NCBI GenBank assembly: GCA_964592365.1
Contig: CAZQDL010000002.1
Coordinates: forward strand, 30,080 to 82,917
DNA: 52,838 bases
Direction of reading: 5' to 3'
Source: an uncultured Candidatus Saccharibacteria bacterium
GTDB lineage: Bacteria; Patescibacteriota; Minisyncoccia; Phycocordibacterales; UBA1006
The translations under genes were made by a program, and so were the position numbers. Below are positions 6,208 through 8,247 of this stretch, piece after piece. The number at the start of each line of letters is the position of its first letter. Position 1 is the stretch's first letter. The notes beneath the pieces are model-generated. The model saw only the letters and a list, made by a program, of their open reading frames with translations, made no database searches and was not told where the DNA came from.

Positions 6208-7191
6208 ATGATACATAAAGAATTAGCGTTACATCCTCAGATTTTCAATACTGAGATGTTAGAAAAAAAAGCAACACGAGATGGATATGGAAGAGGTTTA
6301 GTTGAAGCAGGAAAGCGAAATGACAAGGTTGTTGCATTATGTGCAGATCTTGCTGAATCAACAAGAGCTTTATGGTTTAAAGAAGCATTCCCTAATCGAT
6401 ATATTGAACTTGGAGTTGCTGAGCAAAATCTAGCAGCAGTTGGTTCTGGTATGGCTAACTATGGGAAAATACCATTTATCATGTCATATGCAGCATTTTC
6501 ACCTGGAAGAAATTGGGAACAAATTCGTTCAACTATTTGTTTAAATAATGTACCTGTGAAAATTATTGGATCGCATGCAGGGGTGTCAGTTGGTCCAGAT
6601 GGAGCAACCCATCAAGCCTTAGAAGATATTGCTCTTACTCGAGTACTACCAAATATGACTGTGGTTGTTCCTGCTGATGATGAACAGGCATACAAGGCAA
6701 CACTTGCAATAGCAGAAAATGGGAAACCCACATATCTTCGATTGGCACGTGCAAATACTCCAGTATTTACTACAAACTTAACTCCATTTGAAATTGGAAA
6801 GAGTCAGTTGGTATATGACAATCCTGAAGCAACTATTGGAATTATCGCTTGTGGTTCACTTGTATATCAATCAATCCTTGCAGCAGAATCTTTACAACAA
6901 GAAGGAATACATGTTTCTGTTTTAAATTTACATACGATAAAACCAATTGATGTTGAAGGTATCGTATCATTTGCTACTCATATGAAACATATTGTTACGG
7001 CCGAAGAGCATCAAATTAATGGGGGAATGGGTTCAGCTGTAGCTGAAGTACTATCACAACATAAGCCAAAGAAAATGTCATATATCGGAATGCATGACAG
7101 GTATGGAGAATCAGGAAGTCCTGATGAACTACTTAAGTATTTTGGTATGACAAAGGATGGAATTATTGAGCATATTAAAAACGAAGCCTAG
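6208..7191 (+). CDS. tkt: Transketolase C-terminal subunit
   Basis: GVAEQN, VGPDGATHQALEDIA, TIKPID, EEHQINGGMGSAV motifs; directly follows the N-terminal subunit. Confidence 0.95.
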   Translation: MIHKELALHPQIFNTEMLEKKATRDGYGRGLVEAGKRNDKVVALCADLAESTRALWFKEAFPNRYIELGVAEQNLAAVGSGMANYGKIPFIMSYAAFSPGRNWEQIRSTICLNNVPVKIIGSHAGVSVGPDGATHQALEDIALTRVLPNMTVVVPADDEQAYKATLAIAENGKPTYLRLARANTPVFTTNLTPFEIGKSQLVYDNPEATIGIIACGSLVYQSILAAESLQQEGIHVSVLNLHTIKPIDVEGIVSFATHMKHIVTAEEHQINGGMGSAVAEVLSQHKPKKMSYIGMHDRYGESGSPDELLKYFGMTKDGIIEHIKNEA

Positions 7192-7208
7192 GCTTCGTTT
7201 TTAATATG
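7171..7208. repeat. Perfect 38-bp palindrome / terminator; left copy of a 26-bp direct repeat (7177-7202)
   Basis: CATATTAAAAACGAAGCCT|AGGCTTCGTTTTTAATATG with no loop; it contains the tkt stop codon. Confidence 0.92.
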
Positions 7209-7229
7209 ATTTTTGATATACTTCCTCGT

Positions 7230-7694
7230 ATGAAACCAAAAGGATTCACCTTAATTGAATTATTGGTAGTAGTAGCTATTATTGGAATACTTGCAACGAT
7301 AGTATTAGCATCGCTAGCAGATGCACGAACTAGAGCACAGGTAGCTCGAGCAAGAGCTGAAATGAGAGAAATATATACCCTCATGGATACTGCTCGCATT
7401 TTTGAAGGTACAACATTAATGGGAGTAACAGGTTCAGGGTGTACTCATTGTAGTAATGCCTGGAATACCTCAATTGATAGGATAGTAACTAAAGCTGATC
7501 CTACCGCTACAGATGGTTCACGATTCTATACTGATGTTTGGGGTAGCCCATATTATCTTGATGAAAACGAAGGTGAAATTACCACAAACCTTTGTAGAGT
7601 AGATGGATTCAGGTCTCGTGGACCTGATAAGGCATTAAGTACCACAGACGATATCTCTTATCCGATACCTTTTTCACTACCACAATGTCTCTAA
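7230..7694 (+). CDS. Type IV pilin / GspG-like pseudopilin (pilin 2)
   Basis: [34 protein letters not shown] and SRGPDK resemble the GspG DPWGxPY..SxGPDG motifs. TGATATACT lies 7 nt before ATG 7230. Confidence 0.9.
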
Positions 7695-8221
7695 CATCAA
7701 AAACAAAAGGATTTACTCTCATTGAACTACTCGTAGTAGTAGCCATCATTGGAATATTGGCAACCGTGGTGTTGGCATCACTTGGAAGTGCACGGGAAAG
7801 AGCCCAAGATGCAAAGATTAAGGCACTTATGAATCAAATGAGAGTCCAAGCTGAACTTTTCCAATTGGAATATGGATCTTTTCATGGAACACAAACTTCA
7901 GGACAGTATGATGATTCAATAAATGAATGTTTGTTTTCTAAATTTGATACTACTGTTTTTGATGATGGAACCGCAAGGAGTATTAGTCCGCTTGTAGCTC
8001 AAGTCACAGGAATTACCAGCAGGATGACAGTGCGAATTAGATGTGCCGTGGGAGGGAGTATAGCAGACAGCTGGGCATTTAGTGCTCCTTTGTTTAATCC
8101 AGCTTCAGGAACTACCGGTTGGTGTGTTGATAGCTCTGGAAATTCAAAGGCAGTGAATATTGATTTTACAACATTTGGGCAAGAGCTTGGAATACCTCCT
8201 GCATTAGTAGATTGTCCATAA
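7685..8221 (+). CDS. Type IV pilin-like protein (pilin 3)
   Basis: [33 protein letters not shown] motif; terminal Cys; overlaps pilin 2 by 10 nt. Confidence 0.92.
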
Positions 8222-8247
8222 AAAAACGAAGCTTAGGCTTCGTTTTT
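8222..8247. repeat. Right copy of the 26-bp palindromic direct repeat / bidirectional terminator
   Basis: AAAAACGAAGCTTAGGCTTCGTTTTT versus AAAAACGAAGCCTAGGCTTCGTTTTT at 7177-7202 (25/26 identical). Confidence 0.92.

Follow-up and report, generated by a model that had tools for sequence, protein, structure and literature searches.

We examined a two-gene pilin module that lies between two near-identical copies of a predicted terminator hairpin in the genome of an ultra-small groundwater bacterium of the Patescibacteriota. The window, by which we mean the whole 52,838-nt stretch of DNA analysed, covers positions 30,080–82,917 of contig CAZQDL010000002.1 (assembly GCA_964592365.1, deposited as an uncultured Candidatus Saccharibacteria bacterium); feature coordinates are those of the window unless a contig is named. 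The genome, here G000, is a metagenome assembly of 687,961 b in 21 contigs, 97.6% complete and placed in the Paceibacteria. A first-pass annotation, made from the letters alone, had proposed that the module is a mobile or excisable pilin cassette.

Genes at the locus

The left neighbour of the module is tktC, encoding the C-terminal half of transketolase (6208–7191, + strand; Pfam Transket_pyr 4.3e-40, Transketolase_C 7.1e-26). Its product ends in HIKNEA, with the last three codons (N, E, A) and the stop inside hairpin copy 1; the preceding Lys codon (7177–7179) is also part of the 26-mer. Converging on it from the right is ORF106 (8233–8553, − strand), which encodes a coiled-coil-like protein of 106 aa with only sub-threshold coiled-coil-type Pfam hits and lies downstream of a pfkB-family sugar kinase gene of the same direction (8534–9535, − strand; PfkB 1.9e-33). 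ORF106 ends in ESKNEA, with the last four codons (K, N, E, A) and the stop inside hairpin copy 2. The earlier observation that both outer genes terminate in KNEA within the repeat is thus correct.

The module itself holds two pilin genes and nothing else. An extended −10-like box, TGATATACT (7214–7222, + strand), a predicted promoter of leaderless-type layout, stands 7 nt before the ATG of pilin 1 (7230–7694, +; 154 aa; PF07963 1.3e-09). Position 7230 is the likely start, the ORF start at 7206 being an over-call, although Pfam scoring was done on the 162-aa ORF 7206–7694. Pilin 2 (7685–8221, +; 178 aa; PF07963 8.5e-09) begins within the end of pilin 1, with an overlap of 10 nt, and its stop is directly followed by copy 2.

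Both proteins are type IV pilin-like, with a class III signal peptide (G↓FTLIE) and a hydrophobic helix. For pilins 1 and 2 respectively, the prepilin N-terminal domain PF07963 scored 37.6 and 35.1 bits (cut-off 21.2), and TIGR02532 scored 38 and 33.8 bits (cut-off 16.3). The promoter and two pilins of the first-pass annotation are therefore present, but its term "GspG-like" is not upheld: TIGR01710 scored 40.7 and 40.4 bits against a cut-off of 88.85, over residues 4–60 and 8–70 only. GspH was likewise rejected, pilin 1 scoring 42.3 bits against a cut-off of 80. Sequence matches of pilin 2 in PDB cover only the N-terminal helix of PilA/PilE/GspG (best 6xxd_A, 8.7e-09).

A terminator hairpin in two copies

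Copy 1, read directly from the sequence, is a perfect 26-bp palindrome at 7177–7202. Copy 2, at 8222–8247, is identical to it in 25/26 positions at an offset of 1045 bp, and a pattern search confirmed the pair as first described. The two are direct repeats around the module, with an 11-4-11 layout of arms and loop. Their sole mismatch, C to T at position 12, falls in the 4-nt loop (CTAG vs TTAG), where it is neutral for the stem and makes the ORF106 stop TAA instead of TAG. Copy 1 lengthens to a perfect 38-bp palindrome at 7171–7208, again as previously reported. The 6-nt extension pairs with conserved tktC codons (His-Ile) and could reflect a hairpin improved afterwards or snap-back synthesis when the pair was made; we give it little weight, since long perfect arms are common among terminators of this genome.

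A consensus scan and RNA folding both recognize the copies as terminator hairpins on both strands, with copy 1 having the form A5-stem-loop-stem-T5. Copy 1 folds at −22.4 (+) and −21.6 (−) kcal/mol (z −7.7 and −9.5; 0/200 shuffles as stable), and copy 2 at −14.1 (+) and −12.5 (−) kcal/mol (z −4.7 and −3.6; at most 1/200 shuffles as stable). With their stable stem-loops, their tracts, and their position at the 3′ ends of transcription units, both are predicted to be bidirectional intrinsic terminators.

The pair is unique. Searching the window with up to 3 mismatches gave two 26-mer sites, a count reached by 0/100 shuffles, and the entire genome contains the 18-nt core, 2 mismatches allowed, only twice, both times at this locus. 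The stem core CGAAGC is found in no other hairpin of the genome; the two copies are each other's nearest neighbours among hairpins, and 3/4 of their loop bases agree too. Dropping one copy together with the insert keeps both outer frames whichever copy is retained (GCC or GCT, both Ala, then the stop), which restores an intact tail-to-tail pair as the first-pass annotation had claimed.

The palindrome among the terminators of the genome

A census of perfect hairpins (stem at least 9, with at least 3 G/C) found 251 in the genome, of which 199 have an A-tract arm, in the order A-tract, stem, loop, stem, T-tract. Of these 199, 84 enclose the stop codon of one or more ORFs of at least 70 aa, and 17 hold stops on both strands; the present site is one of the 17, by way of a spurious antisense ORF. 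Each terminator hairpin has its own stem, the commonest type being AAAAACACC...GGTGTTTTT, and identical 6-nt stem cores are shared by three unlinked hairpin pairs.

Where stops lie deep in the palindrome on both strands, two convergent proteins end in the same residues. In the window, uvrB (37285–39318, +) and a convergent 119-codon ORF (39676–39320, −) both end in KKGI within a single palindromic terminator (39296–39330), a layout correctly noted before and the one that the ancestor of the tktC–ORF106 junction would have had. The same layout occurs at C2:134402 (EKEPI) and C7:16443 (KQG), and in the congener G016 both convergent proteins at the junction homologous to tktC–ORF106 end in KQERE.

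Unrelated bacteria, including Colwellia, Paraglaciecola, Vibrio, Clostridium and Oxalobacteraceae, also have the exact 26-mer (position 12 being either C or T), at 12 loci in metagenomes and 10 in genomes. At each of the 22 loci it occupies one site as a lone intergenic hairpin; none of them encodes relatives of the five proteins of our locus, and none places the 26-mer by tkt or pilin genes. Viral contigs gave 0 matches to the 26-mer; pilin 2 matched four viral loci, through its signal peptide and helix only. The occurrence in unrelated bacteria, at single sites and apart from the genes of the locus, argues for the 26-mer as a generic terminator with repeated origins, and against its being the signature of an element family.

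The site in related genomes

The tktC–pfkB interval was taken from 20 relatives whose TktC proteins are 53–74% identical to that of G000. The synteny of the two genes holds in 20/20, and no relative (0/20) has a pilin between them; the only pilin hit lies past pfkB. Nine of these are congeners with tktC and pfkB on one contig, and they fall into three layouts. In six (G016, G005, G012, G009, G014 and G015) tktC is followed by a membrane-protein gene of 54–66 aa, then a two-way hairpin, one or two coiled-coil ORFs, and pfkB. The site is occupied in G008 by an ORF of 155 aa. In the remaining two, G013 and G010, nothing is inserted, and one hairpin is the meeting point of tktC and a coiled-coil ORF. 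The comparison called for by the first-pass annotation therefore bears it out as to the absence of pilins and the existence of a single-hairpin layout, but the hairpins of the congeners differ in sequence from the 26-mer. The TktC ends differ as well, with HIK followed by 3–5 variable residues of the (E/K)QL(S/A/T) type where this genome has NEA.

Six tblastn queries for the congeners' small membrane-protein gene did not find it in G000; the best match (E 0.004) is a hydrophobic stretch. ORF106 matched no ORF of at least 60 aa in the intervals of the 20 relatives (phmmer, E up to 1), and it is best regarded as only a positional analogue of their coiled-coil ORFs. We see from these genomes that the tktC–pfkB spot is variable in the genus and that an empty layout exists. 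All of the congeners are about equally distant, so they do not fix the ancestral state of this lineage.

Pilin units and exchange between paralogues

The genome (688 kb) has 48 pilin-like gene starts. A TGnTAYAHT box ends 6–9 nt before the ATG at 25 of the 48, many of them right behind a terminator, which points to terminator, box, pilin, terminator as the standard pilin unit in this organism. The flanking hairpins of all other pilin units are different ones.

BLAST aligns window positions 7211–7842, at 94%, with another pilin pair that lies on contig C1. Within this match the tract 7335–7792 is identical at 458/458 bp; it covers the C-terminal domain of pilin 1 and the first ~36 codons of pilin 2, and is bounded on both sides by the conserved regions coding for signal peptide and helix. 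Beyond it the pilin-2 genes diverge completely. Public Logan unitigs break exactly at 7335 and 7792. We read the 458-bp identity as a trace of paralogues that recombined recently. The C1 pair follows pyrH directly, with no upstream hairpin, and its downstream terminator is different, so the palindrome is not part of what is exchanged. The pilin swapping that the first-pass annotation suspected is thus visible, apparently proceeding through paralogue recombination in the conserved 5′ parts and not by way of the palindrome.

A contig from public run X23 (7175–7559) carries the same junction of hairpin and pilin 1 with 12 differences, at least 10 of them within the C1-identical tract, which indicates strain-level pilin variation in the population.

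Congeners have the stop of pyrH inside a hairpin. At C1:181960–183080 the 3′ arm of that hairpin is lacking, as if at this insertion the terminator had been broken instead of duplicated. The pyrH–map interval is variable in the genus, with one pilin in 3 of the 10 congener loci that have both genes. In the congener G010 (contig C19) the same interval holds a winged-helix-like gene of ~105 aa with its own box, flanked by direct copies of a 30-bp palindrome (locus positions 1057–1086 and 1430–1473) that have no A/T tracts and differ only at the centre. These may be operator sites of the regulator, or another bracket.

Brackets around other genes

In G000 the tktC–ORF106 bracket, meaning a segment with near-identical hairpins at both ends, is the only clean case. 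One pair, C6:28901/29621, was not counted as clean because its first hairpin abuts a 100-N scaffold gap. There, at C6:28901–29643, two 23-nt hairpins that are exact reverse complements, with the same stems and a flipped 5-nt loop, enclose a fragment of a pilin gene and a Nudix-like gene. Possible explanations are another bracket, a segment capable of inversion, and an error of scaffolding. Another pair, C6:8453/13024, is of a common CACC type around housekeeping genes and was set aside. Several contig ends of G000 are hairpins that match the end of another contig (C3/C12, C6/C10), so that assembly breaks tend to fall at repeats.

The hairpin census was repeated in the whole genome of the congener G016 (811,895 b). 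Under a strict similarity rule (at least 22 matches, at most 3 mismatches), four pairs of hairpins lie within 6 kb of each other. Pair A (27/30) surrounds a gene for a 436-aa lipoprotein-like protein; pair B, an exact 39-bp repeat made up of the rpsI terminator plus 17 nt, surrounds a 342-aa PG_binding_1 gene; pair C, an exact 31-bp repeat, surrounds three genes; and pair D (29/31) surrounds seven small genes. Each bracket uses a different hairpin and carries cargo other than pilins, mostly genes absent from G000, and ten cargo proteins scanned showed no recombinase family. Genes beside the G016 copies are not paralogues of each other (blastp, nothing at 1e-3). As tktC and pilin 2 are also unrelated, the brackets are not the product of tandem gene duplication.

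Other genomes give case B a direction. Four congeners have a conserved gene of 92–96 aa immediately after the rpsI terminator, with no insert between them, and G012 has a homologous insert whose flanking hairpins have drifted apart. The direction of case C could not be read, the left-flank genes not being found near the right-flank gene in 12 congener loci. All five brackets examined start at the first A of the A-tract, and end at the T-tract or 8–17 nt past it. From these two genomes we judge the hairpin-sized bracket to be recurrent and not specific to pilins.

Pairs passing the strict rule made up 2/307 of those within 6 kb and 20/19,394 of all others in G000, and 4/367 and 48/26,894 in G016. 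Near-identical hairpins are thus enriched among neighbours: over both genomes six such pairs were seen where about one was expected from the counts, an excess that favours duplication. A loose rule (at least 85%) was swamped by the common AAAAACACC-type hairpins. A loop-anchored comparison of 7-nt stems was uninformative, as it mis-registers copy 1 (loop 0) against copy 2 (loop 4).

Two repeats of other kinds were noted. At G016 C3:96879–101682, four copies of a 37-bp palindrome within 5 kb separate three genes (659, 187 and 584 aa). The palindrome, which is not a terminator-type hairpin, has the look of a local repeat family. In G000, contig C21 (1,334 b) has ~20 copies of a 36–37-nt repeat at a spacing of ~64 nt, which looks like a CRISPR array.

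Search for movement and for recombinases

The stretch occurs in the contigs of 24 public runs, mostly aquifer metagenomes and none of them RNA. Contigs of four runs (X10, X22, X23 and X24) were aligned to 6700–9000. They showed no joints, and among the loose ends listed none fell at either hairpin, though contigs drop rare variants and the result therefore says nothing on rare excision. Low word shares in X22–X24 reflect patchy cover, not an empty allele. Hairpin 1 is bridged to pilin 1 by contigs from X10 (7179–7243) and X23 (7175–7559, the variant with 12 differences), and the right side, from pilin 2 through hairpin 2 to ORF106, by contigs from X10 (7763–9000), X22 (7990–8303) and X23 (7996–8308). 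ORF106 was chosen as a query for metagenome contigs, being a fast-evolving protein that would pick only close relatives; its 188 pattern matches included no relative.

Six recombinase and transposase families were searched, and none has a match on the contig of the locus, in keeping with the earlier remark that the window lacks a recombinase. Y1 (the hairpin-specific type), rve and IS110 transposases have no match in the genome. DDE_Tnp_1 has a single match, on the 1.4-kb contig C20, and tyrosine recombinase one, on C1; the serine-recombinase domain has seven, on other contigs, three of them in open frames of 504–617 aa. GC skew is positive in the 5-kb windows of the contig from 35 kb on, with a near-zero dip (−0.003) at 30–35 kb; no change of sign along the contig marks a terminus, so the position of the site is not that of a dif.

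We do not regard the module as an autonomous mobile element. Excision as a 1045-bp circle, as the first-pass annotation had envisaged, finds no support in the contigs of the four runs, in the recombinase searches of the contig, or in the bracket itself, which is not peculiar to pilins. What survives of that proposal is the other half, the entry of the pilin pair into a terminator with duplication of the site.

Origin of the bracket

The arrangement is probably the result of insertion of a lineage-specific pilin operon at a shared two-way terminator, with duplication of the whole hairpin. We infer both the direction of this event (insertion and duplication) and its mechanism. In the ancestor, tktC and the pfkB-ORF106 unit would have shared one palindromic terminator encoding KNEA and the stop of both. 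A two-gene pilin-like operon with its own extended −10 box would then have entered at the point of convergence, and its insertion would have duplicated the entire 26-bp hairpin. Copy 1 would still end and terminate tktC, while copy 2 would end and terminate ORF106 and also terminate the new pilin operon, so that neither housekeeping gene would have been damaged. The pilin content of the module would be renewed by homologous recombination with paralogues.

As to mechanism, we favour a one-off event independent of recombinases. It may have been a template switch at a stalled replication fork, in which the hairpin was copied a second time, or staggered breakage where an extruded cruciform has its base. 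Such a structure-defined event is preferred over a site-specific enzyme because the edges of the brackets track the edges of hairpins.

Several points weigh against this account. Neither a genome nor a contig was found in which one copy alone of this palindrome separates tktC from ORF106. We can infer the direction only from congeners, which are ~73% identical in TktC and have other hairpins; and since 6/9 of them have another small gene at the site, the ancestor was not necessarily empty and the event may have been a replacement. None of the three pyrH–map pilin insertions (0/3) has a duplicated hairpin, their flanking hairpins being unrelated, so a gain of pilins does not always come with duplication. 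The 22 unrelated loci at which the exact 26-mer arose make hairpin likeness weak evidence of common descent, and the 20 distant pairs of G000 that also pass the strict rule are mostly of the common AAAAACACC type. The strict rule itself was picked after seeing the data, and the pairs counted under it are not independent. The functions of terminator and promoter at the locus are predictions from sequence. Finally, the module contains a 458-bp exact repeat, which short reads may have left unresolved in a metagenome assembly; the 20/20 synteny of tktC and pfkB argues for the assembled order, short of proof.

The strongest competing explanation, which we nonetheless consider unlikely, is that the stretch with both hairpins arrived by homologous recombination from a related strain, for instance after natural transformation, ousting the small membrane-protein gene, and that the duplication arose elsewhere or earlier. 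The absence from this genome of the gene that follows tktC in 6/9 congeners, the distinct TktC tail (NEA vs (E/K)QL(S/A/T)), and the recent recombination evident within the module are all consistent with such an import. But it relocates the origin of the duplication without explaining it, the ORF106 search of metagenome contigs yielded no donor-like contig, and the variant strain in X23 has the same left junction.

Chance resemblance, in which compositional constraint made two independent terminators alike, is less probable. Terminators can converge this far: the exact 26-mer has evolved independently in unrelated bacteria, 20 of 19,394 distant pairs satisfy the strict rule, and three unlinked pairs share identical 6-nt stem cores. 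Against it, at the distant-pair rate only ~0.3 such neighbouring pairs would be expected in this genome, whereas these copies are nearest neighbours agreeing at 25/26 positions, 3/4 loop bases included, with a stem core found in no other hairpin. A shared ancestor also accounts for the KNEA gene end standing in the same frame in both copies, and convergence does not.

Least probable of all is a 1045-bp unit actively moved at the palindrome by a site-specific enzyme encoded elsewhere, in the way that integron cassettes or Xer-dependent dif modules move, or that a transposase specific for hairpins acts: direct 11-4-11 palindromes do bracket a self-contained unit, one tyrosine recombinase and seven serine-recombinase-domain matches lie on other contigs, and pilin positions vary between congeners at two sites, but the palindrome is found nowhere else in a genome whose other pilin units have different flanking hairpins, the 26-mer is a lone hairpin away from tkt and pilin genes in the 22 unrelated loci and has 0 viral matches, Y1, rve and IS110 gave no match and the lone DDE_Tnp_1 match falls on a contig of 1.4 kb, GC skew speaks against a dif-like position, and the G016 brackets use different hairpins with no recombinase among the ten cargo proteins scanned.

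Insertion at the shared terminator with duplication of the hairpin thus remains the reading we prefer, and under it the locus is a clean recent case of gene gain at a terminator in a genome of the Candidate Phyla Radiation (CPR). The gain would have come at no cost to two central-metabolism operons because the shared terminator, which encodes the ends of both genes, was duplicated. Patescibacteria depend on pili and surface proteins for host attachment. The locus reveals neither a new mobile element nor a programmed pilin switch. The presence of brackets in a congener too suggests a recurrent footprint of gene gain at terminators, and offers a rule for annotators, that two near-identical neighbouring terminators mark a recent insertion.

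A far broader proposal, to which we assign a low probability, is that terminator hairpins are general docking points for new genes in ultra-small bacteria, independent of recombinases. A stalled-fork template switch or cleavage at the cruciform base would insert accessory surface-protein genes, with the hairpin copied on both sides. If this were so, newcomers would be insulated and their neighbours left intact, the direct repeats of 26–39 bp would permit later precise loss, and genomes with almost no mobile elements would have in docking a main way to gain and lose genes.

Comparison with known systems

Like known bidirectional intrinsic terminators, the palindrome is a GC-containing hairpin between an A-tract and a T-tract, placed at convergent 3′ ends and readable on both strands. 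It differs in occurring twice, 1045 bp apart with genes between, and in reaching three to four codons and the stop into the coding sequence. Papers on bidirectional intrinsic terminators exist (PMC5381666; bioRxiv 10.1101/2022.10.23.513370). A narrow phrase search for literature on duplicated terminators returned none on this subject, which does not show that the footprint is unpublished.

Pilin variation in Neisseria proceeds by gene conversion at pilE from silent, promoterless pilS donors. As there, and as in the pilin paralogue families of Patescibacteria (PMC11623550), G000 has many pilin paralogues (48) and a 458-bp identical tract bounded by conserved 5′ regions. We compared the silent-donor model with the two loci that share the tract. 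Both have promoter-like boxes and so look expressed, unlike pilS, and neither silent promoterless cassettes nor dedicated machinery was seen.

Integron cassettes and Xer-dependent dif modules (IMEX) use one conserved family of sites, recognized by IntI or XerC/D. The module resembles them in being small, bounded by palindromic sites and devoid of an internal recombinase. It was rejected as an integron gene cassette, since its site is a unique terminator, it has its own −10 box, and the sole tyrosine recombinase match is on C1, with no integrase nearby. It was rejected as a Xer/dif module as well, there being no skew switch; the palindrome is unique to the locus and the parallels use other hairpins, each bracket being made from a different ordinary terminator.

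Transposable elements leave target-site duplications, the usual ones far shorter than 26 bp, and the morons of phage genomes are autonomous promoter-gene-terminator units inserted between genes. The module shares features with both, namely a self-contained transcription unit, a direct target duplication, and intact neighbours. The insertion sequence or transposon was rejected as a class, the module having no transposase and, as read from the sequence, no inverted repeat at its ends, and its setting is the chromosome of a CPR bacterium. A further difference is in the duplication itself, which is 26 bp here and 26–39 bp in the parallels, a length set by the edges of the hairpin.

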